A DNA stretch of 11,638 bases from Candidatus Diapherotrites archaeon CG08_land_8_20_14_0_20_30_16 (GCA_002779075.1 PEXK01000013.1:1-11638), one strand, 5' to 3'. Counted from the stretch's first letter, positions 42 to 11,638 are shown. Program-made: numbers and translations. The notes: generated from the letters alone by a model not told the origin.

Positions 42-3000
42 ATGACCTTTAAGGATTTGTATTATGCACAAGAGGAACATTTTAATAAAGTAATTGATTC
101 AATAGATTCTCGAATTTCTGTAAGATGGTTTTTCAATGCAATAGACAAAGTAATTCCTTCTTTTATTTTTGTTAATCTTCTTCTTTTAGTAGTTATTCTT
201 GTGCTGGTCTGGTTTTTTGTTATTCCACATATGCAAGAGGTTACTTTTATTTTCAAATCAGACAACATCCAATTAGTGGAGACCTTTAACTTCACGATAA
301 GTGTTGATGGTAAAGAATATGCTGGATTAGCAGAGCAAGGACAATCTCTTTTGGAAATTAAAAAAGGAGACAAAATAAGCATAGACTCTGTTGATTTGAA
401 GGACTACAACATTTCACAAAAAATATATGACTTTAAAGATCAAATTATAATAAATCTGGTTAAAGAAAAGTCTTTATTACCTGTTTCTTTTTACCTTTTT
501 AATTATGATGGAACAAATTTTGACAAACCTACAAATATCAGCTTTGCGTGTAGTTCTGGGTTCTCAGGGCAAAAAACAACATCTTCAAATACTTTTTATA
601 TTGATGTGCCTGATGATTGTGGCAATTTAAGTATAAATGCTCAATCTGATGGCTACAATTTGACAAAGGGCAATGAATGTGATAGTTCAGCATGTTCTTT
701 AGAATTTAGTCCAATTACAAATGTAAATAATGGAAAAATAAGTATTCCTAATGGTGGTATTAAAGTATCTGTTTTTAATGATCTAGGAGATCCTTTGTCA
801 GGTGTTAAAGTAAAAATTTATGAATCAAATAATTTACAAGACGAAATAGATGTTTCTATTACAAATCAATTGGGTTTAACAAAAATATTTTCTGGTCTTT
901 CTGTTGGCAAGTATTCAGTTTATGTCTCTTATTCTGATAATAATTATTTGGATAATTGCCAGGATACTTTTGTTAATGAAAATAGTGTCTCAGAAGTTAC
1001 AGTGAAGTTAAGCAAAATGTCTTTAGGCAAAATAAAATTAGTTTTTTTGGATGAAAATAACCTTCCATTAAAAGGTAGTTTGATATTAAAAAACAATTTA
1101 GGGGCTGTTTTATTTAGAACTCCACAATTTGATGGGGAATACAATCTGCCAGTTTATTCCTATGGGTTGTTTTATTTGGATTTCAAACCAGATGACCCAA
1201 TATTATTTCCTCTAGGAAATTACAAATTAGACATTGATTCTTCTTTAACAACAAAAACAATTGTTGTAAAAAAAGCAAGTGTTTTTAATAGTGCAAAACT
1301 AGTAATAAAAGTAATTGATGAAGATAATAATCCAGTAACTAATGGGCGGGTCTTTGTTCAAGATGCTGTAACAGAATTTGATTTATTGTCTTATGTTGTG
1401 CCAGAAACAGATTCTAATGGCAATGCTTGGGTTTTGCTACCTGAAGGTGCATATAGATTGAGAGTTTTCAATGGTTTCAGTGAGGCATTTAGTGGTACTG
1501 TTACTGTCTTTCCAAGTACCTCTGGTGAAACACCACAAATAAATTTAACAATAAACATGATGTTTGGTTATTCTCTGCTTAAATTGCAAATAAGAGACGA
1601 GTTTGGAATTCCATCTCCTAATACACAGGTCTTTTTCTTCAAAAAACCTAAAACAGATGCAGGAACAAAACTAACAAATGCCTTAGGACTAGTTAATCAT
1701 TCTTTCAAAGCCGGCACCCCCTTATACTATGTTGTTAAAGCAGATAATTATCTGCCTTATTTTAGTGAAGCGAAACTATTAATGACAAATATGCTGTGGG
1801 ATGTTAATTTGGAGTTAACACCAATAAAACTTGGCACTCCTAAAGTTGAGTTTTTAGGAATGTATGATTCTTTAGGTGGTAATGAAGAAAAGGCTATGTC
1901 TATAGGTGGTACATATTATTTAGGATTCAGAATATATATTTATGAAAAACCAGATGATACATTTGATTTTACAATAACAGCAGGAAAAAATAATACATTA
2001 GAGCAGGAAAAAGTTTATTTTAATGATGTTTTTTCATCAGCAAATACAGACACGAAACTTTTTAGCACAGACCCTGATTCTTTGTCATTAGGAGATGCAA
2101 AAACAATAATTTCTAATTGGAAAACCCCAACACAAGGTATATACGATGTTTATTATAGAGTGCAAGTGAGAAATGATTCATCAGTTCATTTGTATGATCC
2201 TTTGTCCTTTAATTGGGAGTTAAAAATTGATGATGATTTGAAAATAAGTGAAACAAAAGATTTTTTGGCAGGAACAAAAAGTGTTTGTGCCCAGGACGAA
2301 ATTTGCGGAAGATACACTTTGCTAGATAAAACAAATGAGCTCTATGTTGATGCTGTTGCAGAAGACAATTTTGAGGTAGTTCCTGGTCATACATATGAAT
2401 TGGAGTTTGATTTGATAAATGGAATTGATGGTTCAGAAGGAGAAATAAAAAATGGCTCTTTACAGATTTATAATGCATTAGCCCCAAATGAATCTGTAGA
2501 TGTAGTAAAGAACAATATTTCTACAAGATCATTTTTGCAGGTCTTTAATTATAATTTGTCAGGACCATCAAATGAAATGCATAAAGAAAATAGTGGAAAT
2601 TTCTTTGGTGTATTTGAAGAAGCATATAATTTTACTGAACTTACAAAAAACAAATATGTTTCCGGCAAGCTCACACTAAAACCAATAAGTGGCCGGTCTT
2701 ATTTGAATTTTGTTGTAATAGATTCTGACAAAAAAGTTATTGTCCAAAAAAAACCAGCATTATCTTTGCTTTTTGATGTTGTTTCTTCAAAAAAATTGAA
2801 AGTAACATTATTCCCAGACAGAGTTTTGGCACCTGAAACAACACAGAACTTGAAAATAGCAGTTAGTGATGATTCAAATTCTTTTGTAAAAGACGCATTT
2901 GTTTCTGTGCGATTAAAAAAGCCGACAGATAATAAGTATAGAATTTTAGATGATTGTGGCGGTGTAAATGAATTAAAAACAGATCCTTTGGGAATTACTG

Positions 3001-6000
3001 AATGCGAATTGAAAGCACAGGATCTGCCTGCAGGAACATATGTGCAGGTTTTGGTTGAGAAAGAAGGTTATGAAGGCTACTCCCAGAAAGATTTTACACC
3101 TGATTTACAGGTGAGCAATAAAATATTTGAATTTGATAAAGAATTTTTAAGTACCAATTTAATTTATCCTATTCAGCCAGAAGGATATGATGATTTAACA
3201 ATAACAAATAACACTGCAAAAGATATTACAATTGACCACCTGGAATTAATTGTTAACAACTATTCACAAGATGCTTTGGGATATTTAAATTTGTTAGAAA
3301 TGCAGAATTATATTTCTCAAATATATAATGGAAAAATAATTTTGGGAAGACAAATGAATTATGATGAGCAAAGTGTTTTGTCAGGTGAAGCTAAATCATA
3401 TTTAAAGAATTTCTTTAAAGCAGCATTAAATGAGCAGACTGCAAAAGAAATTGAGAAAGACACAAAAGCAGGGGGCTTTGTAAAAATATTTTTCAAAACA
3501 GAAGCAAAGCCTTTAGAAAGAATAATTCCTTTTAGTGTTAACATTGTGAGCGATGGTTATCCAACAAATAGTAGTGATTGCTTAATAATTGGTTTTCCAA
3601 GCGATATAACAAGTTTTGCATCTGACGGTTCAAAACCAATTAATATCCCTGTTATTGTACAAAATAGTTGCATAATACAGACTCAAAACAACTCCACAGT
3701 AACAGTCCTACCTGTAACTTTAGATTCTGCATTTATTGTTATTAATCATGAAAAAGGAGCACTTGGTCTGGGCTCATATTCTTTCAGTTTGAACACGGGG
3801 GAATATACAGATTTGAAATTTTCAGTGCCAAAAGCATTTGCAACTAATTGGCAATCTCAAGAATCAGAGCAACTTGCAAATATATCTTTTATGCCTAGAG
3901 GCGTAATGGGGAAAGAAACCTTGAATATAAAATTAATAGGCACTATTCAAACATCACAGGGAATGAAAAAAGTGGAGTCAAAAGAATTGAAATTTGATGT
4001 GTCTGTTTTGAATATTGAGGATTGTATAAAAGTTTTAAATGATAAAGGAAATGAATTTGATTATTTAAATTTAGAGCCAAAAGAATTTTCTATTGATACT
4101 ACATCAATAAACCCTTTGCAACAAGCACAGAAATTTGATATAACAATAAAAAATATTTGTGAAGGCATTCCTTTGGATATAAGGATTTGCAGAGATAATA
4201 CAAATAACATCCCAAAAAGTTGTGGTGAAGATCTTCTACAAAAAGGTTTTGTTGGTTTTAGTTTTGTAGGATTGGGCGAGAAACAACAATACTTTGAAAA
4301 GAAAGCAATAACTGGAGACAATACAAAAGTAGAGATATCAAGGCCAGAAATTTCTGGTGCTTATGCATTGGAAATTTATTCAAAGCAGCCAAAAGACATG
4401 TCATACAAAAGGATTAAATTCCTGCCTGTTAATGTTCAGACAAGTTTTTCAAATTCTCTTTTTATGTTAAATCCTTTTTTGGAAACCCACACAACATCGG
4501 CTAATCATGGGATTTTGGAAAGCGATGTAATGCGTGTATATAATTTGAATGTTCCTGGGCCATTGAAAATAACAGACAGAAACACATTTATCAGGATTTT
4601 GAAATTAGAATCTTCATCGGATATTAAAATAGGCAGCGCTGCAGATGCTGCTAGTGAATTAGATATGGCTAGTGGCCGATTAACTGAGACTATAATTGGT
4701 AGCGCTTCAGGTGCAGTATCTACTGTTTTGATTAGTGTTCTTATTGCAGTTACATTATCAGCTACAGCTACTGGTTGGGTCATAGGTGGCGCGGTTGTTG
4801 CTGCTGTTCTTGCTGTTGTTATGCTGGTTTTGTCTTCAATATCAAACATATCTGATTATCAAACTAGGGAATATGTTTTAATCAAAGATAAAGATGAACC
4901 TTATTTTGATCATAACAATTCTAATCCAAATATTGACCTGGAGGATCTCACCTATGCTTCGCTTTTTAAAGTCACAGGTCAAGATCATTATGAGTTTAAT
5001 ATAGTTCGAGAGGATGCTGATGGATCTGTTGGAATGACATCAACAACTTGGACTGATAGATTAAACTTTGAAGTTGGTTGTTCATCTAGTGATTATGAAT
5101 TAGACAAAGAAAATATTTTGTATTTAAGCAAAGGCGATCCAAAAACAAATTTTGATGATTGTTGGTGGGCTTCAGAACCAACAATAAGTGGAAATAAAGT
5201 TACTTTCCATCCTGCTTGTGGCGGTTCATCTTATGTTGATGTTGAATTGGAAACATATGTTGTTGTTCCTTGCAAGCTGAAGTCTGAACTTTGGGGAAGA
5301 GCAAATCAAGGGGGAATTATTGGGGGGTATCCAAACACAGGAATCTTTAATCTGCAATTCACAGACATCAACTTTGCAAAATTTTATGACGATAAGACAA
5401 AATGTGATTCTGAATGGTGTTTCAAAACCTTTCCTTTAAATATAAGCAATGTAATATTAGGAAGCACACAAAGTAATTTGAGAGTTGCTTATCATAATTT
5501 AAAACCGCAGGAAATAACAATAAATCAAAGTGGTTTTGAATGCACAGATGTTCTAGGAAATGTAATTGGTTTTACTGGTGAAAAAGCAAAACCTAAAATT
5601 AGTTTTGATTGGAGCTATGATGATATTAATAATGAGTTTTGTGAATCCGATGTTAATGGAGATGTGAAACAATATTGTGATTCAACCCAGTTTAGTATTT
5701 CACTTTTGAAACACCTGCAAAGTGCACAGGAAAAATTAAACACTTTAGGGTCACCTACTTGCCCATATATGAATCCATTTTTTAATATAAAACCAGAAGT
5801 ATCTACACAGAAAGAGTTTTTCAATGATGTTTTAATAACAAAAAATGCAGATCAAACAAAATTGTATTTGCAGGCTACAAAAATTTATGATACTGAATTA
5901 AATGCACAGGCACCTAATAACAAAACATATCTGGTTGTTGGTAACGCTAGTCCAAAAGAAATGAAAGCAGAGATTATAAGCACAGAAATAATGTTGAATG

Positions 6001-7403
6001 GTATACTTAAAAAGAGATGGAAACAGCTCTTTACATACGAGCTCTTGACTTTGCCAAATCCTGCAGATTTAGATCCTGGCAAGCAAACAATATACAATCA
6101 ATCTGTGAACCTTTTGTTTTACGGTTGCGATTCAAATGCACAGAACTGCAAGAATACAGAAATAGTGCCAACAAGTATTGTTGTTACTGCAACAAACTGG
6201 AAAGGTGGCTGTGTTGTTGAAAACCCATCAACAAAAATTTTGACAGATGGCAGAATGCTTTTATTTAAATTCTTTAAAGGTGTTGATGAAAACAAATTAT
6301 TTGAAATACAGGATATTTTGCATTACAAAGCATATTTGACTGATGATGGTTTTTCACAAGACTTTCTGAATGATCTTTACAATTATTCTCAGAAAAATAC
6401 TTTCCTGAATGAATTATCAAACTTAATTGATGATTTTAATATTAGTGAAAAATCTCCCATAGGCCAGTTTAAAATAATCAATGATTTACAGGAACCTAAA
6501 ACAATGGGTCCTGGATTATATGAAGTGCATGTAAATCTGGTTTTCCCAAAAGACAGTGTTGAGATAAAAGATGCGAATATTGAAATTGTTTTGAACAAAA
6601 TCAAACACGCAACAAATGATAATGTTTTTTATTACCTGCCTATTGATGGAAGAGTGGGTATTGATAACTCGAATATAGAAAGACAAGGTTATGGTGTTGA
6701 TTTTAGTGGGGATAACATAACAATAGACACAGATATTCTAGGGGAGCAGTTAATTACAAATCTGGGCAGTAACTCGACACCTAAGTCACACCTAGAAATT
6801 AATAAATCTGTGGGATTCTCTAAAATGAATGGGCTAAACAGAGGAACAATATTTGAAGCAAAAAGAACAGAATCTGGGCCTGTAAATAATATATCTTTGT
6901 CTTTTGTACCTAAGTTGCAATATTGGACATTGAACTATAATATGAAAAATATAAACAAAGACCAAGAATCCGGTATATACTATTCATTAATCTACAATAA
7001 CAATTTCCAGTTGCAAGAAAATTCAATACTTCCATGGTTCGCAAAAGATCAAAATAAAACAGATTTTACTGGCCAGAAACTCTTTGATACCTACCAAAAA
7101 GTATCAATAAGGGATGATGTTGATAATACTGTTTCTAAAATTGTTTATGATGCTACAAGTGTAACTGATATTGCAGATTATAATATTTATGCAAGAGTAT
7201 TTGGTATTGAAGGTGCAAGCTTGTATGTGAAAATAACAAAACTCCAAAACCTCATGAAAAAAAAAATAATTGTGGGGGTGCCAGAAAAATTGAATATTGA
7301 AACTATTGCACAAGTGATTGAAGCTATATCTTCAGGGAAGCTGTGCATTTCAAAATCAGCAAATAGTTTGTATACCAGAGTGTTTGTAAAAGAAAACAAG
7401 TAG
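42..7403 (+). CDS. Giant (2453 aa) membrane-anchored multi-beta-sandwich surface protein; putative adhesin/envelope protein, no catalytic domain recognised
   Basis: A 7362-nt ORF with no stop in an AT-rich, stop-prone background; ATG at 42, TAG at 7401-7403. Every ORF overlapping it is under 115 aa. The same frame is also open from window position 3 to 42, so a start upstream of the window cannot be excluded. Hallmark motifs read in the translation: ETDSNGNAWVLLPEGAYRLRVF (T-D-x-x-G...LP-x-G-x-Y, typical of CarboxypepD_reg-like domains) and VQVLVEKEGYEGYSQKDF (PEGA-like). Confidence 0.9.
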   Translation: MTFKDLYYAQEEHFNKVIDSIDSRISVRWFFNAIDKVIPSFIFVNLLLLVVILVLVWFFVIPHMQEVTFIFKSDNIQLVETFNFTISVDGKEYAGLAEQGQSLLEIKKGDKISIDSVDLKDYNISQKIYDFKDQIIINLVKEKSLLPVSFYLFNYDGTNFDKPTNISFACSSGFSGQKTTSSNTFYIDVPDDCGNLSINAQSDGYNLTKGNECDSSACSLEFSPITNVNNGKISIPNGGIKVSVFNDLGDPLSGVKVKIYESNNLQDEIDVSITNQLGLTKIFSGLSVGKYSVYVSYSDNNYLDNCQDTFVNENSVSEVTVKLSKMSLGKIKLVFLDENNLPLKGSLILKNNLGAVLFRTPQFDGEYNLPVYSYGLFYLDFKPDDPILFPLGNYKLDIDSSLTTKTIVVKKASVFNSAKLVIKVIDEDNNPVTNGRVFVQDAVTEFDLLSYVVPETDSNGNAWVLLPEGAYRLRVFNGFSEAFSGTVTVFPSTSGETPQINLTINMMFGYSLLKLQIRDEFGIPSPNTQVFFFKKPKTDAGTKLTNALGLVNHSFKAGTPLYYVVKADNYLPYFSEAKLLMTNMLWDVNLELTPIKLGTPKVEFLGMYDSLGGNEEKAMSIGGTYYLGFRIYIYEKPDDTFDFTITAGKNNTLEQEKVYFNDVFSSANTDTKLFSTDPDSLSLGDAKTIISNWKTPTQGIYDVYYRVQVRNDSSVHLYDPLSFNWELKIDDDLKISETKDFLAGTKSVCAQDEICGRYTLLDKTNELYVDAVAEDNFEVVPGHTYELEFDLINGIDGSEGEIKNGSLQIYNALAPNESVDVVKNNISTRSFLQVFNYNLSGPSNEMHKENSGNFFGVFEEAYNFTELTKNKYVSGKLTLKPISGRSYLNFVVIDSDKKVIVQKKPALSLLFDVVSSKKLKVTLFPDRVLAPETTQNLKIAVSDDSNSFVKDAFVSVRLKKPTDNKYRILDDCGGVNELKTDPLGITECELKAQDLPAGTYVQVLVEKEGYEGYSQKDFTPDLQVSNKIFEFDKEFLSTNLIYPIQPEGYDDLTITNNTAKDITIDHLELIVNNYSQDALGYLNLLEMQNYISQIYNGKIILGRQMNYDEQSVLSGEAKSYLKNFFKAALNEQTAKEIEKDTKAGGFVKIFFKTEAKPLERIIPFSVNIVSDGYPTNSSDCLIIGFPSDITSFASDGSKPINIPVIVQNSCIIQTQNNSTVTVLPVTLDSAFIVINHEKGALGLGSYSFSLNTGEYTDLKFSVPKAFATNWQSQESEQLANISFMPRGVMGKETLNIKLIGTIQTSQGMKKVESKELKFDVSVLNIEDCIKVLNDKGNEFDYLNLEPKEFSIDTTSINPLQQAQKFDITIKNICEGIPLDIRICRDNTNNIPKSCGEDLLQKGFVGFSFVGLGEKQQYFEKKAITGDNTKVEISRPEISGAYALEIYSKQPKDMSYKRIKFLPVNVQTSFSNSLFMLNPFLETHTTSANHGILESDVMRVYNLNVPGPLKITDRNTFIRILKLESSSDIKIGSAADAASELDMASGRLTETIIGSASGAVSTVLISVLIAVTLSATATGWVIGGAVVAAVLAVVMLVLSSISNISDYQTREYVLIKDKDEPYFDHNNSNPNIDLEDLTYASLFKVTGQDHYEFNIVREDADGSVGMTSTTWTDRLNFEVGCSSSDYELDKENILYLSKGDPKTNFDDCWWASEPTISGNKVTFHPACGGSSYVDVELETYVVVPCKLKSELWGRANQGGIIGGYPNTGIFNLQFTDINFAKFYDDKTKCDSEWCFKTFPLNISNVILGSTQSNLRVAYHNLKPQEITINQSGFECTDVLGNVIGFTGEKAKPKISFDWSYDDINNEFCESDVNGDVKQYCDSTQFSISLLKHLQSAQEKLNTLGSPTCPYMNPFFNIKPEVSTQKEFFNDVLITKNADQTKLYLQATKIYDTELNAQAPNNKTYLVVGNASPKEMKAEIISTEIMLNGILKKRWKQLFTYELLTLPNPADLDPGKQTIYNQSVNLLFYGCDSNAQNCKNTEIVPTSIVVTATNWKGGCVVENPSTKILTDGRMLLFKFFKGVDENKLFEIQDILHYKAYLTDDGFSQDFLNDLYNYSQKNTFLNELSNLIDDFNISEKSPIGQFKIINDLQEPKTMGPGLYEVHVNLVFPKDSVEIKDANIEIVLNKIKHATNDNVFYYLPIDGRVGIDNSNIERQGYGVDFSGDNITIDTDILGEQLITNLGSNSTPKSHLEINKSVGFSKMNGLNRGTIFEAKRTESGPVNNISLSFVPKLQYWTLNYNMKNINKDQESGIYYSLIYNNNFQLQENSILPWFAKDQNKTDFTGQKLFDTYQKVSIRDDVDNTVSKIVYDATSVTDIADYNIYARVFGIEGASLYVKITKLQNLMKKKIIVGVPEKLNIETIAQVIEAISSGKLCISKSANSLYTRVFVKENK
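153..227 (+). other. N-terminal transmembrane signal-anchor of gene 1 (aa 38-62)
   Basis: An uninterrupted hydrophobic run, IPSFIFVNLLLLVVILVLVWFFVIP, preceded by a 37-aa polar/charged tail. No obvious signal-peptidase A-x-A site follows it. Confidence 0.8.
756..1826 (+). repeat. Four tandem ~85-aa CarboxypepD_reg-like beta-sandwich modules (protein-level repeat, aa 239-595)
   Basis: Each unit opens with an alternating hydrophobic strand followed by an acidic/Pro turn: IKVSVFNDLGDPLSGVKVKIY, IKLVFLDENNLPLKGSLILK, LVIKVIDEDNNPVTNGRVFVQD, LKLQIRDEFGIPSPNTQVFFF. Unit 3 carries TDSNG...LPEGAYRLRV. Unit boundaries are approximate, and I saw no long DNA-level identity between units. Confidence 0.7.
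2790..3113 (+). other. PEGA / CarboxypepD_reg-like beta-sandwich module (aa 917-1024)
   Basis: KKLKVTLFPD...FVSVRLKKPTDNKYRILDDCGGVNELKTDPLGITECELKAQDLPAGTYVQVLVEKEGYEGYSQKDF. It shows the T-D-x-x-G...LP-x-G-x-Y...K-x-G-Y pattern. Confidence 0.55.
4692..4841 (+). other. Internal hydrophobic hairpin: two predicted TM spans (aa 1551-1574 and 1579-1600) in the middle of gene 1
   Basis: IIGSASGAVSTVLISVLIAVTLSA-TATG-WVIGGAVVAAVLAVVMLVLSSI. This is 50 residues with no charged side chain, rich in Ala/Gly/Ser/Thr/Val, split by a short TATG turn. The local DNA is visibly more GC-rich (GCT/GTT/GGT codons) than its flanks. Confidence 0.8.
4842..7403 (+). other. Cys-rich distal region of gene 1 (aa 1601-2453), no family recognised
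   Basis: It contains 14 Cys, 13 of them between aa 1680 and 2057 (nt 5079-6212). Several lie in close pairs: CDSEWC, CDSNAQNC, CESDVNGDVKQYC. I could not recognise any catalytic or known domain signature. Confidence 0.5.
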
Positions 7404-7480: not shown

Positions 7481-8143
7481 ATGAATAAAAATGCATTATT
7501 GTTAAGCACAGATAAAATCAAAAACCGGATTTATACTCTTCGAAATCTGCAAGTAATGTTAGATTCTGATTTGGCAATATTATACAATGTTCTTACTAAA
7601 AATTTAAATAAGGCCGTAAAAAGAAATATTGATAGATTCCCAGAACAGTTTATGTTCCAATTAAATAACCAAGAATTTGAAGACTTGAAGTTCCAATTTG
7701 GAACATCAAGTTGGGGGGGCACAAGAAAATTACCCTTTGCTTTTACAGAGCAAGGCGTAGCTATGCTTTCAGGGGTATTAAAAAGTGAAACTGCTGTAAA
7801 AGTTAGCATACAGATAATGGATGCATTTGTTTCTATGAGAAAATTTATTAACTCAAATGCGTTGATTTTCCAAAGATTAGATAAAGTAGAAATTAAACAA
7901 TTAGAACATGATAGAAAGTTTAATGAAATATTTGATGCAATACAAAGCAAGGATATTAAGCCAGAAAAAGGAATATTTTTTGATGGCCAAATTTTTGATG
8001 CCTATAAGTTTGTTTCTGATTTAATTAAAACTTCAAAAAAATCTATAATTTTAATAGATAATTATATTGATGATTCTGTTTTAACACTATTTAGTAAAAG
8101 AAATAAAAATGTGAAAGTAACAATATACACAAAAACCATTTAA
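7481..8143 (+). CDS. ORF6N domain protein (KilA-N-related putative DNA-binding protein), apparently C-terminally truncated
   Basis: The translation carries the ORF6N signature: IYTLRNLQVMLDSDLAILYNV...LNKAVKRNIDRFPEQFMFQL...TSSWGGTRKLPFAFTEQGVAMLSGVLKSETAVKVSIQIMDAFV. A coiled-coil-like LDKVEIKQLEHDRKFNEIFDAI follows, then the start of a second conserved module, GIFFDGQIFDAYKFVSDLIKTSKKSIILIDNYIDDSVLTLFSKR. The ORF ends at TAA 8141-8143, with a second in-frame TAA four codons later. Confidence 0.9.
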   Translation: MNKNALLLSTDKIKNRIYTLRNLQVMLDSDLAILYNVLTKNLNKAVKRNIDRFPEQFMFQLNNQEFEDLKFQFGTSSWGGTRKLPFAFTEQGVAMLSGVLKSETAVKVSIQIMDAFVSMRKFINSNALIFQRLDKVEIKQLEHDRKFNEIFDAIQSKDIKPEKGIFFDGQIFDAYKFVSDLIKTSKKSIILIDNYIDDSVLTLFSKRNKNVKVTIYTKTI

Positions 8144-8245
8144 GTTATTAAATAAGTTGGGATTGAAATGATAAATAAAGTAAAATTTAAGGAATTTGAA
8201 AAAATTTAGTCTAAAAAAAGTAGTTATGAGATACAAATCAATAAA

Positions 8246-8253
8246 TTTATATT
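8246..8253 (+). promoter_or_regulatory. Second copy of the TTTATATT TATA-like octamer, upstream of gene 3
   Basis: This is the same octamer as at 7447-7454 (the 9-mer ATTTATATT is shared). Its 3' end lies 32 nt before the ATG at 8286. The TSS it predicts would fall in or just after the SD-like element, so the two calls are partly in conflict. Confidence 0.3.
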
Positions 8254-8273
8254 AAGAAAAGGGTATATAGATT

Positions 8274-8280
8274 AGGAGTG
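8274..8280 (+). promoter_or_regulatory. Shine-Dalgarno-like AGGAGTG upstream of gene 3
   Basis: AGGAGTGA is complementary to the conserved 16S 3' tail (SD consensus GGAGGTGA, one G missing). GGAG ends 7 nt before the ATG at 8286. Confidence 0.5.
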
Positions 8281-8285
8281 AAATT

Positions 8286-11200
8286 ATGGAAGATAACATA
8301 AATTTAGATCAACAAAATATAGATATCCGAGAACCCACCAAAAATAAAGAACTAACTCTTAAAGATGGTTGGTATAAAAAATTGTCAGAGAAATATTATG
8401 CATTAGTTGATAAATTGCATTTGAGGGCAATAACAAATCCCCTTGACAAATTGTTTCCATCTATGTTTTTCTTTTTGATTTTGTTTTTAGTAATAATATT
8501 TGTTATAGTTTATTTTTCTGCATTTCACACTTCATTAAGCACTTATACTTTGCAGTTAACTGTTAATGGGGTGGCTTTGGACAAAACCTATTCAATTGTA
8601 TTGACTAGTACAGATAATGAAATAAATATTTTGGGCAAGACAAAAGATATTTCAGGAGTTGTGACGTTTGAATCCAAACAAAATATTAGTGTTAACGCCA
8701 AGATAAATATAGCTGGGTTTGAACCAATACAAAAACAATTCAAAACAGACAAAGAAAAGATAATTTTGGATTTAACACTTAAAGAAATTGAAGAACAAAA
8801 GTTAGAATCAAAGAAAAACATTTTTTCTTTTGCATTTTTCAATAAATTAGGTGCGTTAAATAAGAATGGGAACATCAAATTGAACTGTGACACTTATTCA
8901 CAGGAATTTCCTGTTGAAAACGGAATATTAGACAATATCGAAATCCCATGTACTGTTGTAAATGTTAATGCAACTGTTGATGGCTTACCAAATGTAAATC
9001 AAAACTGTAGCCCTATGTTATGTAAATTGATGTTTAGTGACACAATTTCCAACACTGAAATTAAAACAGAACAGATCCTGCCTAAAAATATATTGCTGGT
9101 TTATGTTACTTTCAAAGATGGAAATATTGCTAAAGGCATGACTGTTGAAGTTAGAAGAGATTCAGAAGGGCAGGAATTAATAGATTCTGATAAAACTAAA
9201 GATTTCGGATCTTATAAGATAGGTCTTATTTCAGGGATGTATTTAGTTATTATTTCAGATCCTTCTGGGAAATATGCATCGCAACAGCAAAAAGTAGAAA
9301 TACATGCTGGAAACCAAGAACCCCTATACTTTGTTTTAGATACTCCAGCAATAGGCGCGATAAATGTTAATTTCAATGTTGAAGACACAGCTATTTTAAT
9401 GGGCGTTTTGTATTTCAAAGACGTAAACAATAATATTTTAGAAACAAAACCTTTTGATACGAATCAACCTGTACAATTCCTAATAAAGGTTAAGGGGCAG
9501 TATAATTTGTCAGCATCTTTGAATACAGATTATGTTAATGATTATGTTTCAGAAGATGTTTCTACAGAGTATAACCAAGAGAGTGGCAATTTTGATGTTA
9601 ATTATCTAATAAGAAAAATAAATATTTTCACTGACCAGAATGTTGTTGTTCAGGTTATAGATTCAACAAATCAAAAACCAATTCCTTTTGCAAAAATCTT
9701 TTTCAGAGATTCACTGAACAATAATGCTTTTTTAACTTCTGTAGGGTTTGTAAATACAGATTCTAATGGTGTTTATTATAGAATACTGCCAAAAGGAAAT
9801 TATAGTGTAAATTTGAAACATGCACGTTTATCTGGCACACAGCTGTTTTCTGTTGATGAAACAAAATCACTCACATTAACTTCTAAGAATGTTTTGTTGA
9901 AAGTGGAATGGGGAAATACGCAAATCAATTTGTGTCTGTTTGATAATAAAAAGAAAGAACTTTATGATGCTTTTGTTGAAGTGTATAGCCAAGAGAGAGG
10001 CGGAGAAAACACTTTCTATATTACTAAAGAAAATAATTGTGCAATCACAACTGTAAAGAATTTAGAGAATATTTATTTGCATATTACAAAACCAGAATAT
10101 TACGAGCAGTATACCCAGACAATATTTTTGGATGGTGAAACAAAAATAATACCTGTATCAATTTATTTAACACCAACAATTGCAAATGGCCAGCAGAATT
10201 TTGAAAGCTCTTTTGCAGGAATTTTTGATGATGCTTTGTTGAAACAAGCCACAAAGAAACTAGATATCGATAAAGATTATTATTATGCTTTTAAAGTCAA
10301 AATTCCCAAATTCAAGGCATTAACTGAGAAACTTGTGAAATTTTATGGTGTTGCAGGAGATTTAAAAGATGAAAACTTTGATAAATCTAAGATGTTAACA
10401 TTTTGGGTATCTTCTTTAGGCAATGCTAAGTTATATAATGAATTTGATACAAAAAACATTTTGGCAAAGGATGTTCCTGTTTTAGAAATGGGCGAGGATT
10501 TTAAATTCGGGGCAAAGAGTTTTATTTTAGATTATCCTTTTCCAAAAGACAGTGAATCAGATGTTGAGATTTTGTTTGTTGTTTTAAATCATATTACAAA
10601 GTATGTTGATGTTAGTAAATCAGAAGGGGATCCAATAATTTTTAATTATTGGTTTGGCTTAGAATCAAACCCTGCACAGCAAAAAGATTTCAAAAAGGTA
10701 ATAAGGTATCCGGGCACACAAATGTGTGAAGAACCAATTTGTTTAGATGCTTATTTGAATGGTTCTCCTGTTAATGGTCCACAGGTTTCATCTCAAGGCT
10801 ATTTGTTTGCAAAGCTTTTCTTTGACAATGATGACAAGAATATTTCAATATACAACACATCAGAACAGGAGAAAGTGAAATCTTTAAATGATTTGAAAGA
10901 TTTGTATCTCTCATTTGATATTCCTGAGATTAACAAATTTAATCTTCACACAGTTGAGGGGGACATAACAACTGATGCTTTAGAATTAGGTCCTGTTTAT
11001 CTACCTAATGTAGAGATATCAAAAGTAAATTACCTGGATTTTAATGTTCATTATTCTTTATTGAACCCAAAAAACAGTAATATAATATTTAGAGCATTCA
11101 AAGATAATTTTTCAGATTCAAATTTTGAATTAGCATTGCAATTGATTGCTTATGAAAAAGGATATTTAACTGTAGACATATTGCCTGAAGAATATATTGT

Positions 11201-11638
11201 TCCTTTTGTTACAAATCCTGTTACTGTGAAAATATATGATGACAAGGGGATTCCTTGTATAAATGCAGAAGTAAGATATTATTCATATGAATCTGGAAAT
11301 TGGGTTTTGCAAGACAGTTATTTAACAAATCCCAATGGCGAAACTAATTTTGAAACTAGTCCAATAAGTATTGGTGACAAAATAAAAATTGTTGTGCTTA
11401 AAGAGGGTTTTGCACCATTTGAGAAAGAATTTAATGCAGATTTTGGTTTTTTTAAAGTCCCACCAAAACTAACTGCAAAGGTTACTTATCCTAAAGATGC
11501 AAACCCAGTTAATAAGGAAGTGGAGATAGAGAATAAATCTGGTTTGGGAATAAAGATTTTTAATTTAAAATACAGTTTAGCAAATACAAGCAAAGTATCT
11601 CCAGATGTGTTTAATCAATTAATTATTACAGAGAAGAT
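8286..11638 (+). CDS. 5' part (at least 1117 codons) of a second giant membrane-anchored beta-sandwich surface protein, paralog of gene 1; runs off the 3' end of the window
   Basis: It is not in the supplied ORF track because it has no stop codon. I read every codon in the frame where nt mod 3 = 0, from 8286 to 11636, and found no TAA, TAG or TGA. The nearest upstream in-frame stop is TAG 8268-8270, and 8286 is the first ATG after it. The translation begins MEDNINLDQQNIDIREPTKNKELTLKDGWYKKLSEKYYALVDKLHLRAITNPLDKLFPSMFFFLILFLVIIFVIVYFSAF. Its module order matches gene 1. Confidence 0.85.
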   Translation, partial: MEDNINLDQQNIDIREPTKNKELTLKDGWYKKLSEKYYALVDKLHLRAITNPLDKLFPSMFFFLILFLVIIFVIVYFSAFHTSLSTYTLQLTVNGVALDKTYSIVLTSTDNEINILGKTKDISGVVTFESKQNISVNAKINIAGFEPIQKQFKTDKEKIILDLTLKEIEEQKLESKKNIFSFAFFNKLGALNKNGNIKLNCDTYSQEFPVENGILDNIEIPCTVVNVNATVDGLPNVNQNCSPMLCKLMFSDTISNTEIKTEQILPKNILLVYVTFKDGNIAKGMTVEVRRDSEGQELIDSDKTKDFGSYKIGLISGMYLVIISDPSGKYASQQQKVEIHAGNQEPLYFVLDTPAIGAINVNFNVEDTAILMGVLYFKDVNNNILETKPFDTNQPVQFLIKVKGQYNLSASLNTDYVNDYVSEDVSTEYNQESGNFDVNYLIRKINIFTDQNVVVQVIDSTNQKPIPFAKIFFRDSLNNNAFLTSVGFVNTDSNGVYYRILPKGNYSVNLKHARLSGTQLFSVDETKSLTLTSKNVLLKVEWGNTQINLCLFDNKKKELYDAFVEVYSQERGGENTFYITKENNCAITTVKNLENIYLHITKPEYYEQYTQTIFLDGETKIIPVSIYLTPTIANGQQNFESSFAGIFDDALLKQATKKLDIDKDYYYAFKVKIPKFKALTEKLVKFYGVAGDLKDENFDKSKMLTFWVSSLGNAKLYNEFDTKNILAKDVPVLEMGEDFKFGAKSFILDYPFPKDSESDVEILFVVLNHITKYVDVSKSEGDPIIFNYWFGLESNPAQQKDFKKVIRYPGTQMCEEPICLDAYLNGSPVNGPQVSSQGYLFAKLFFDNDDKNISIYNTSEQEKVKSLNDLKDLYLSFDIPEINKFNLHTVEGDITTDALELGPVYLPNVEISKVNYLDFNVHYSLLNPKNSNIIFRAFKDNFSDSNFELALQLIAYEKGYLTVDILPEEYIVPFVTNPVTVKIYDDKGIPCINAEVRYYSYESGNWVLQDSYLTNPNGETNFETSPISIGDKIKIVVLKEGFAPFEKEFNADFGFFKVPPKLTAKVTYPKDANPVNKEVEIENKSGLGIKIFNLKYSLANTSKVSPDVFNQLIITEK
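8454..8525 (+). other. N-terminal transmembrane signal-anchor of gene 3 (aa 57-80)
   Basis: FPSMFFFLILFLVIIFVIVYFSAF is an uninterrupted hydrophobic run after a 56-aa polar tail. It sits in the same position, relative to the D-K-[VL]-[IF]-P-S motif, as the anchor of gene 1. Confidence 0.8.
9090..10175 (+). repeat. Four tandem CarboxypepD_reg-like beta-sandwich modules in gene 3 (protein-level repeat, aa 269-630)
   Basis: Units open with ILLVYVTFKDGNIAKGMTVEVRR, INVNFNVEDTAILMGVLYFKD, VVVQVIDSTNQKPIPFAKIFFRD and VLLKVEWGNTQINLCLFDNKKKELYDAFVEVYS. Unit 3 carries NTDSNGVYYRILPKGNYSVNLK. The array ends in ...VSIYLTP, as the gene 1 array ends in ...VNLELTP. Confidence 0.65.
11208..11444 (+). other. 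PEGA / CarboxypepD_reg-like module in gene 3
   Basis: VTNPVTVKIYDDKGIPCINAEVRYYSYESGNWVLQDSYLTNPNGETNFETSPISIGDKIKIVVLKEGFAPFEKEF. It is collinear with gene 1 at 2790-3113 (VQVLVEKEGYEGYSQKDF). Confidence 0.55.

Follow-up and report, generated by a model that had tools for sequence, protein, structure and literature searches.

Two-helix transmembrane (TM) hairpins, such as the bilobed domain of chlamydial Inc proteins and the two-TM families DUF6223, DUF6232 and DUF4231, comprise about 40-60 uncharged residues arranged as two arms around a short turn, with both flanks on the same side of the membrane. A similar element was analyzed here in gene 1 of an 11,638-nt stretch of DNA (the window) from Candidatus Diapherotrites archaeon CG08_land_8_20_14_0_20_30_16 (GCA_002779075.1, PEXK01000013.1:1-11638), where it joins the long stalk of a giant surface protein to a C-terminal module (Table 1). 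In the Inc and two-TM DUF proteins, which are small, the hairpin is the main anchor, whereas that of gene 1 lies 1,490 residues into an already anchored protein of 2,453 aa, and the number of hydrophobic arms is not conserved in the Iainarchaeota family to which gene 1 belongs. The sole Pfam matches of the gene 1 hairpin were to these three two-TM families, and they were weak (E 0.001-0.5, far below gathering thresholds). The glycine-zipper families of Pfam (PF13488 Gly-zipper_Omp, PF13441 Gly-zipper_YMGG, PF13436 and PF05433 Rick_17kDa_Anti) share with the junction an uncharged, Gly/Ala/Ser-rich hydrophobic composition. They are mainly bacterial outer-membrane lipoproteins, unlike the archaeal gene 1 family, and their gathering thresholds were not reached: the gene 1 hairpin gave no glycine-zipper match even at E<=10, and two relatives matched below threshold, P0083 and P0105, the latter scoring 20.9 bits where 25 are required. 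The GxxxG-type register of gene 1 is, in addition, neither beyond chance nor conserved.

Pore-forming colicins, the diphtheria toxin T domain and the Bcl-2 family carry a charge-free, Ala/Gly/Val/Ile-rich hairpin of about 40-50 residues that can insert tip-first. There, amphipathic helices form a bundle around the hairpin; the neighbours of the gene 1 hairpin are beta-sandwiches, and structure prediction gave no bundle of that kind. Class I viral fusion peptides (HA2, gp41, paramyxovirus F) are Ala/Gly/Val/Thr-rich, charge-free stretches of 20-30 residues inside a large ectodomain precursor. The split-gene forms of the gene 1 family, described below, resemble them in that the element would come to stand at a new N-terminus after a predicted cleavage. 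In gene 1 itself the segment is internal, no protease or cleavage site is recognisable before it, and what follows is a beta-rich module without a match in the viral structure library (BFVD), instead of the heptad-repeat coiled coil of class I fusion proteins; class I fusion peptides are also typically far less hydrophobic than arm 2 of gene 1. The N-terminal region of VacA is a GxxxG-containing membrane element, and here again the likeness lies in the split forms, in which, after export, the stretch would stand at the N-terminus of the mature, beta-rich protein. Unlike VacA and class I proteins, the module model lacks a long coiled coil, and Foldseek matched it neither to coiled-coil nor to beta-helix passenger proteins; we know of no pore or toxin activity in the Iainarchaeota giants.

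Giant surface proteins have been described in other DPANN archaea. The SPEARE proteins of Nanohaloarchaeota, for which a role at cell-cell contacts has been proposed, combine protease and laminin-G domains with a restriction-endonuclease region on the cytoplasmic side and a single TM segment near one end (PMC6642349). Like gene 1, they are mostly extracytoplasmic, carry adhesion-type domains and occupy a sizeable share of the genome; they differ in that Pfam identified no serine protease, laminin-G or restriction-endonuclease domain in gene 1, and no sequence relationship between the two was detected. Literature searches on DPANN giant and surface proteins turned up no description of an Iainarchaeota stalk-plus-module family. 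By analogy with the systems above, the junction element would work like a two-helix membrane hairpin or a glycine-zipper-type element, set within an uncharacterised, phylum-wide family.

A charge-free double segment between stalk and module

The first-pass annotation of the window had pointed to two TM-length, small-residue-rich segments joined by a TATG turn, and exactly this arrangement is present in the translation of positions 42-7403 (aa 1551-1600, nt 4692-4841), as is the low-complexity stretch reported ahead of it (SAADAASELDMASGRL, aa 1532-1547), in which AlphaFold2 (AF2) placed a short helix at low confidence (aa 1533-1542). Val, Ala, Ser, Ile, Leu and Gly account for 44 of the 50 residues of aa 1551-1600, with Val, Ile and Leu at 46%, and the uncharged run in which they lie extends over 55 residues, the second longest in the protein being of 29. 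Hydrophobicity was measured with Kyte-Doolittle (KD) 19-mer windows, considered TM-like at >=1.6, and as the summed Hessa free energy (dG, in kcal/mol). The only KD peaks reaching 1.6 in the whole protein are those of arm 1, arm 2 and the N-terminal anchor, and their summed dG values are given in Table 1. An uncharged run of at least 55 residues appeared in none of 1,000 shuffles of the protein (maximum 46), with an analytic expectation of ~4e-4; a window with KD>=1.6 arose in 97% of the shuffles and hence is not rare by chance. Because single windows of this kind are so common in shuffled sequences, it is the length of the double segment without charge, together with its conservation, that makes the element significant, and not any one KD window.

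The small residues Gly, Ala, Ser and Thr make up 51% of the hairpin (versus 4% of the N-terminal anchor), 51-61% of its counterparts in seven two- or three-arm orthologs, and 37% in the one-arm ortholog P0010; such a composition is typical of tightly packed hairpins. The earlier description of the segments as zipper-like therefore stands as a matter of composition and fails as a matter of register, since small residues spaced at i+4 were not in excess of shuffles (p=0.11). Strict glycine-zipper motifs number two in gene 1 (p=0.045) and zero in orthologs P0002, P0013 and P0014. The DNA encoding the hairpin had also been singled out as GC-rich, and with a GC fraction of 0.42, against 0.319 for the gene, it falls within the top 30 of 2,403 windows of a gene that lies in AT-rich DNA (~31% GC across the window). 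The excess sits in codon positions 1 and 2 (0.56 and 0.52, versus 0.41 and 0.32 in the gene as a whole), and GC at third positions (GC3) is 0.18 versus 0.22. The local rise is due to Ala, Gly and Val codons, that is, to amino-acid composition, and a foreign origin of the patch was rejected, GC3 not being raised.

Structure prediction was less informative. An AF2 model of aa 1361-1760, built from an alignment of 8 sequences, yielded confident flanking beta-sandwiches (predicted local distance difference test, pLDDT, of 70-84 for the stalk domain at aa 1361-1465) and a hairpin with pLDDT of 25-32 in which arm 2 alone was helical; the modelling proposed at first pass hence says nothing about how the hairpin packs.

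Conservation of the junction across the family

A phmmer search with aa 1361-2453 as query returned 302 cluster representatives at E<=1e-3 (182 at E<=1e-10), most of them 2,200-2,700 aa long and almost all from Iainarchaeota, with conserved cores corresponding to aa 1810-1960 and aa 2085-2350. In an independent survey, GTDB species genomes were scanned with the motif YCD[AS]TQF[SML][IG], which identified 130 confirmed loci, often in several copies per contig, of which 80 were retained for junction analysis. Nearly all loci are labelled Candidatus Iainarchaeum, Diapherotrites or unclassified archaeon, and they include the complete AR10 genome; the minority comprises a few labelled Micrarchaeota and a few that are probably mis-binned. 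Among these, L027, L030, L039 and L060, of which three come from one study, were binned as Falkowbacteria, Thaumarchaeota or Chloroflexi and are probably mis-binned Iainarchaeota contigs and not cross-phylum occurrences. The gene 1 product, which is 100% identical to P0001 (COT14_00730, from the Ca. Diapherotrites archaeon CG08_land metagenome-assembled genome (MAG); Iainarchaeota, DPANN), shows the complete set of family features: the IDKxxPS motif with anchor, the beta-sandwich stalk, the uncharged Gly/Ala-rich junction and the module motifs, including RQGYG.

The full-length orthologs P0002-4, P0009, P0013 and P0014, which are 28-49% identical to gene 1, have 55-75 uncharged residues of hydrophobic character at the corresponding position, and the hairpin can hence be regarded as real and retained in position over this degree of divergence. 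The junction is also the least conserved part of the N-terminal 1,900 residues, with a four-way identity of 10% over aa 1551-1600 and with G1578 and W1579 as the only invariant residues of aa 1502-1663 in an 8-sequence alignment. Arm 2 is found in all close homologs, with the pattern G-W-[VIL]-[VIL]-[GA], and is followed by a conserved [DN]-[DYW]-[QE]. Arm 1 is missing in P0010, which has a single span of 27 residues, and is duplicated in P0014 and P0011, giving about three hydrophobic segments. The 90% cluster of P0010 includes COT14_02970, which, as the shared locus-tag prefix shows, comes from the same genome as gene 1. This second gene-1-type giant (P0010 / P0158, PIU22096.1) shares 37-44% identity with gene 1, according to the region compared, and its one-armed junction element (LVGWLIGAGVLLVGITIFIAAFTTYL) offers a natural comparison for topology.

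Across the 91 members of at least 2,000 aa, the number of TM-like windows located mid-protein was 0 in 44, 1 in 24, 2 in 22 and 3 in 1. The internal windows with KD>=1.6, present in 47 of the 91, lie nearly all at ~aa 1430-1620 (with outliers at 1274, 1716 and 1775), and a joint alignment placed most such windows immediately ahead of the point where the C-terminal module begins; four long members have a single KD>=1.6 window elsewhere, three of them being among the 44 without a mid-protein window. At the species level, a KD>=1.6 window was present at the junction in 23 of the 80 loci and absent in 57. Since arm number varies from 0 to 3 among homologs, a strict double crossing is not the family-wide state, and the fixed two-span topology first put forward does not survive as a conserved one. 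Members falling below the threshold carry an uncharged Gly-rich stretch at the same place (e.g. GGGFGGMGGSGGGLGGFLGGFGGM, AISGGAASGAASGLAGGLL), with GGYG/GGFG-type low complexity of up to 128 aa in some relatives, and an uncharged Gly-rich or hydrophobic stretch was located ~200-390 aa upstream of the YCD motif in most of the 80 loci. The pattern points to the junction element as an old family feature, of which the TM-grade, two-arm form of gene 1 is a minority, more hydrophobic version. In many distant members (e.g. P0043, P0105, P0128, P0145), C-x-W-[ED] is found upstream of the hydrophobic stretch, usually by ~35-80 residues, and D-P-C-D just downstream of it, followed by DYVINLSG. The two bracketing Cys, which are absent from gene 1, may form a disulfide that clamps the base of the hairpin in those proteins.

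Split-gene forms and the fusion seam

At least 22 of the matches, with lengths of 670-1180 aa, are complete standalone module proteins. They open with a typical signal peptide, in which a basic n-region and then a hydrophobic h-region precede a c-region whose last residues are AxA, VxA or similar, and continue at once with 60-120 uncharged, Gly/Ala-rich residues that lead into the conserved module. At locus L008, one such module gene (P0048, 963 aa) begins 41 nt after a 1,616-aa stalk gene. The stalk gene encodes the anchor with its IDKxxPS motif, aligns colinearly to the giants from aa 3 to 1486 and lacks a C-terminal hydrophobic segment. At L042, L082 and L084, an upstream open reading frame (ORF), colinear with the giant over ~900-1550, stops 27-33 nt before a module gene bearing a signal peptide. 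One option raised at first pass was that the hairpin marks the seam between two ancestral genes, and these homologs split at the hairpin bear it out: stalk and module genes lie 27-41 nt apart in at least four species, and the split falls exactly at the element, the upstream genes following the giants' stalk as far as ~aa 1450-1550.

Two other candidate splits were discarded. The 970-aa P0011, which appeared to be split before the hairpin, was resolved by tblastn into one continuous frame with a single in-frame stop, and is a gene-calling artefact or a pseudogene. The stop, at ~nt 1183 of L007, interrupts an ortholog with 79% identity to P0004 and led the gene caller to report the shortened protein; sequencing error, a pseudogene or recoding may account for it. 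A pair of 1448 and 974 aa at L008 is unreliable as a split, with a run of N (scaffold gap) ~40 nt before the stop.

The locus L082 shares a MAG with L010, the closest GTDB relative. Its post-signal-peptide stretch contains GTGWGAIAGIIGSAVG, at a distance from the YCD motif equal to that of TGWVIGGAVVAAV in gene 1. Because of this GW-containing stretch and its equal spacing, the hairpin corresponds to the module's own N-terminal Gly-rich stretch and not to a trapped signal peptide. A rough neighbour-joining tree of module-core sequences gathers the standalone forms mainly on one side, which would imply few, old events of fusion or fission.

Topology and membrane insertion

Both flanks of the hairpin had been placed on the outer side of the membrane by the first-pass annotation, and the family data agree: the stalk is made of adhesin-type folds, and the module also exists as a standalone protein with a cleavable-type signal peptide. 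Since standalone modules open with a signal peptide, the module is predicted to be exported, and on these sequence grounds both flanks are most likely extracytoplasmic. Enrichment of N-glycosylation sequons, evaluated as a marker of outside location, was not significant (20 vs 16.2±3.7 expected; 13 vs 10.5±2.8). With both flanks outside, the element would have to cross the membrane an even number of times or dip into one leaflet.

We favour, with a confidence that is about even, a membrane-embedding hairpin that would hold the junction of stalk and head in the producer's own membrane. The N-terminally anchored stalk of beta-sandwich domains would form module A (aa 1 to ~1530), and the exported head would form module B (aa 1550-2453), which itself begins with a hydrophobic stretch that is uncharged and rich in Gly, Ala and Ser. 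In gene 1 this stretch would enter the producer's membrane as two antiparallel helices, arm 1 acting as a stop-transfer sequence and arm 2 restarting export, with Gly-Trp at the turn and interface. Stalk and head would both stay outside, the head directly on the membrane and the 1,490-residue stalk tied at both ends. A hairpin inserted in cis appears the most economical model because arm 2, with a summed dG (-2.3 kcal/mol) within the range integrated by the Sec translocon, is hydrophobic enough to be taken up by the producer's own. The module is placed on the membrane surface because arm 2 passes within a few residues into the first beta-strand, AF2 strands near the hairpin exit spanning aa 1602-1614 and 1607-1612 in two models. 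The one-arm paralogs suggest that a monotopic wedge may be the more general state of the family. We infer membrane insertion, the membrane entered, and a full bilayer crossing as opposed to a half-inserted wedge; the feature, its conserved position and character, the split forms and the signal peptides of the standalone modules were observed directly.

Several observations weigh against this arrangement. A cytoplasmic turn would normally carry some positive charge, and the expectation is broken here, the turns being devoid of Lys and Arg in every ortholog (TATG, STVPGLG, VAGPAG, STTGIG, TIPVAG, SIPVWG). Both arms are marginal in P0002, P0003 and P0013, with a summed dG of +0.9 to +2.5. Arm number is not conserved, P0010 having one, gene 1 two, P0014 about three and many members none, and the structure of the hairpin is not confident in the 8-sequence AF2 model. 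Taken together, the variable arms, the marginal hydrophobicity, the chargeless tip and the mature N-terminal position in split forms would also fit an entry from outside.

Whichever membrane is involved, the junction element would mark the sole site at which a gene-1-type giant must meet a lipid bilayer. It is also the boundary between the two parts of the giants, the stalk with its anchor and the exported head module, of which the head is found alone as well. The Iainarchaeota (Diapherotrites) invest roughly 20 kb of a ~1.2 Mb genome in giants that have no annotation, no Pfam or NCBIfam model and no structural relative. Were the hairpin in the cell's own membrane, these would be doubly tethered envelope proteins and candidates for the cell-surface scaffold of the phylum; were it to insert into another cell, the connection between DPANN cells and their partners would become directly testable. 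The split-gene forms provide natural smaller constructs, of 770-1000 aa.

Alternative explanations

The strongest competitor, unlikely on balance and yet credible, is a latent element that is exported in shielded form and later inserted from outside into the membrane of a partner or prey cell, as an anchor, pore former or fusion-type peptide, with the stalk bridging the two cells. Membrane-active stretches are located at the mature N-terminus in VacA p33 and in class I viral fusion peptides, a position that the stretch of the split forms is predicted to take once the signal peptide is removed. Across the family the stretch is only moderately hydrophobic (e.g. GGGLLGGLGGAFMGLG, GGFGGMGGSGGGLGGFLGGFGGM), which is too weak for a stop-transfer sequence and typical of membrane-active peptides, and in all orthologs the whole element, tip included, is free of charge, as a hairpin crossing a bilayer tip-first needs to be. 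A variable number of arms would be tolerated under this explanation. On the other hand, arm 2 of gene 1 is as hydrophobic as a real anchor (dG -2.3) and should be captured by the producer's translocon; no shielding domain, amphipathic helical bundle or coiled coil surrounds the hairpin in the AF2 models; and the module resembles no known toxin or fusogen in Foldseek searches of PDB and BFVD. The biological context can be read both ways. For the contacts that DPANN archaea make with hosts, membrane fusion or cytoplasmic bridges have been proposed, their molecular basis being unknown (PMC11329633), and a latent element would suit this setting; for Ca. Iainarchaeum and the Iainarchaeota, a capacity to grow autonomously has been argued (PMC6642349), so that a host is not established for them and the episymbiont premise that had made insertion into another cell attractive at first pass is uncertain.

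A bolder form of the same explanation, which we hold to be a shade more doubtful, makes the element the working tip of a phylum-wide cell-cell contact machine, the N-anchored stalk presenting the head and the hairpin anchoring in, perforating or fusing the neighbour's membrane; that the element of the split forms would act in such contacts as a free N-terminal peptide is put forward equally tentatively. If so, it would be the first candidate for a molecular basis of DPANN membrane contacts or cytoplasmic bridges.

A function away from any membrane appears rather improbable. In this case the stretch would be a Gly/Ala-rich low-complexity linker, or a helix-helix association element bundling copies or tandem paralogs into an oligomeric envelope structure. 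The variability of the region lends itself to this explanation, about half of the relatives lying below TM-like hydrophobicity, some with GGYG/GGFG-type repeats, and the junction sequence being as poorly conserved as noted above; the very low AF2 confidence at the hairpin and the tandem clusters of 3-5 giants, suggestive of a multi-subunit assembly, can be added to it. However, a stretch of 55 chargeless residues, mostly Val, Ala, Ser, Ile, Leu and Gly, would be insoluble in water unless buried, the ordinary linkers of the gene 1 protein are not hydrophobic, and the close clade consistently retains TM-grade hydrophobicity together with the GW interface motif.

It is very improbable that the hairpin is an evolutionary scar, that is, a signal peptide or anchor trapped when stalk and module genes fused, and tolerated since without a present function. 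A gap as short as that of the split genes would make read-through fusion or fission easy, and the standalone forms are grouped on one side of the module-core tree. Against a scar, the arms are rich in small residues, whereas the signal peptides of the split forms are rich in Leu, Ile and Phe, and the counterpart of the hairpin in these forms, by YCD distance and GW motif (L082), is the Gly-rich stretch after the signal peptide and not the signal peptide itself. The uncharged character has moreover been held across the phylum despite the turnover of the sequence, and is therefore likely to be under selection. Finally, one long span or another odd number of crossings, which would leave the C-terminal 850 aa in the cytoplasm, deserves hardly any credence: P0010 and several distant members do have one TM-length window, and AF2 builds a helix in arm 2 alone, but the module carries its own signal peptide in many species, its Cys pattern is common to 0-, 1-, 2- and 3-arm members, and at 50-55 residues, interrupted midway by a conserved break containing Gly/Pro, the stretch exceeds the length of one span.

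Features of the window and gene context

Table 1. Features of gene 1 and its neighbours. Positions are counted from the first nucleotide of the window; KD, Kyte-Doolittle peak; dG, summed Hessa free energy in kcal/mol; pTM, predicted template modelling score.
Feature	Residues (aa)	Window position	Strand	Remarks
Gene 1, giant surface protein	1-2453	42..7403	+	2453-codon ORF; hypothetical protein COT14_00730
Juxtamembrane motif IDKVIPS running into N-terminal signal-anchor	34-40 and 37-62	141..227	+	KD 3.21; dG -4.98
Stalk of repeated beta-sandwich domains (CarboxypepD_reg / SpaA / CnaB / prealbumin-like)	~1470 aa	228..4634	+	Pfam, PDB profile, AF2
Ala/Ser-rich acidic stretch SAADAASELDMASGRL	1532-1547	4635..4682	+	just N-terminal of hairpin
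Whole charge-free hydrophobic element	1550-1604 (55 aa)	4689..4853	+	longest uncharged run; shuffles; kept in orthologs
Arm 1, IIGSASGAVSTVLISVLIAVTLSA	1551-1574	4692..4763	+	KD 2.10; dG +0.43; marginally hydrophobic, evolutionarily variable
Turn TATG	1575-1578	4764..4775	+	last residue is the invariant Gly of the GW motif
Arm 2, WVIGGAVVAAVLAVVMLVLSSI	1579-1600	4776..4841	+	KD 2.78; dG -2.30; strongly hydrophobic, conserved
Exit motif SNISDYQTRE, of the form [DN]-[DYW]-[QE]	1601-1610	4842..4871	+	kept in orthologs; precedes first module beta-strand
C-terminal module, beta-rich	1605-2453 (849 aa)	4854..7400	+	AF2 mean pLDDT 80.5, pTM 0.68
Family signature G-x-T-G..A-x-P-K...W...C...YCD[AS]TQF	1843-1886	5568..5699	+	invariant alignment columns
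ORF6N-domain gene		7481-8143	+	220-codon ORF; Pfam E 5e-33; between gene 1 and gene 3
Gene 3, stalk paralog		8286..11638	+	1117 aa visible; runs past window end

The IDKxxPS motif and the anchor were found in all stalk-bearing relatives and paralogs compared. Ahead of the anchor, a cytoplasmic N-terminal segment (Y..LE.K[FY] ... IDKxxPS; 42-161, aa 1-40, in gene 1 and 8286-8450 in gene 3) is common to all stalk-bearing paralogs and to distant relatives. The segment may serve as a signal for targeting or assembly; in appearance it is unlike a class III (pilin-type) signal peptide. The stalk matched CarboxypepD_reg, SpaA and PEGA-type families in Pfam, in all cases weakly or below threshold, and collagen adhesin, NOMO and CnaB/SpyCatcher domains in a PDB profile search; prealbumin-like domains were among its matches as well.

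The AF2 model of the module, computed from a 35-sequence alignment, is beta-rich and multidomain. Foldseek returned no significant fold neighbour for it in PDB or BFVD, and no family match was obtained in Pfam, in NCBIfam or in a PDB profile search. The module may represent a new multidomain fold with the invariant motifs G-x-T-G, YCD[AS]TQF and RQGYG. Six of its Cys are invariant or nearly so in the 35-sequence sample, which spans members with 0, 1, 2 and 3 arms; the description of the distal region as Cys-rich holds to a modest degree only, with 14 Cys in 849 aa versus 15 in the 1,487 aa of the stalk.

Gene 3 shares the N-terminal motif and anchor of gene 1. Its orthologs are second giants at the syntenic loci L001 (2,251 aa, 44% identity) and L004 (2,150 aa, 34%), and their overlap with gene 1 is confined to the N-terminal ~750 aa. 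Whether gene 3 has an equivalent hairpin had been asked at first pass; judged on these full-length orthologs, the gene 3 class has none, both the internal hydrophobic segment and the gene-1-type C-terminal module being absent. The giants of L001 and L004 are directly adjacent, 7-25 nt apart. Because no gene separates them there, the ORF6N-domain gene is probably an insertion in the present genome, small and possibly of mobile or phage-related origin. The DNA around it (flanks ~7800-8400) falls to 20-24% GC.

A gene-1-type giant is followed by one or two more giants at L001, L004, L005, L006 and L008. Tandem arrays at L001, L004-L006, L008 and on several other contigs contain 3-5 giants of 2,000-2,600 codons over about 15-25 kb, and combine paralogs with and without the junction element and module, which suggests a multi-subunit surface structure. 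On the opposite strand, an ORF of 114 codons (4505-4849, -) overlaps the hairpin. Its most likely origin is the GC-rich set of Ala, Gly and Val codons on the sense strand, of which it would be a side effect.

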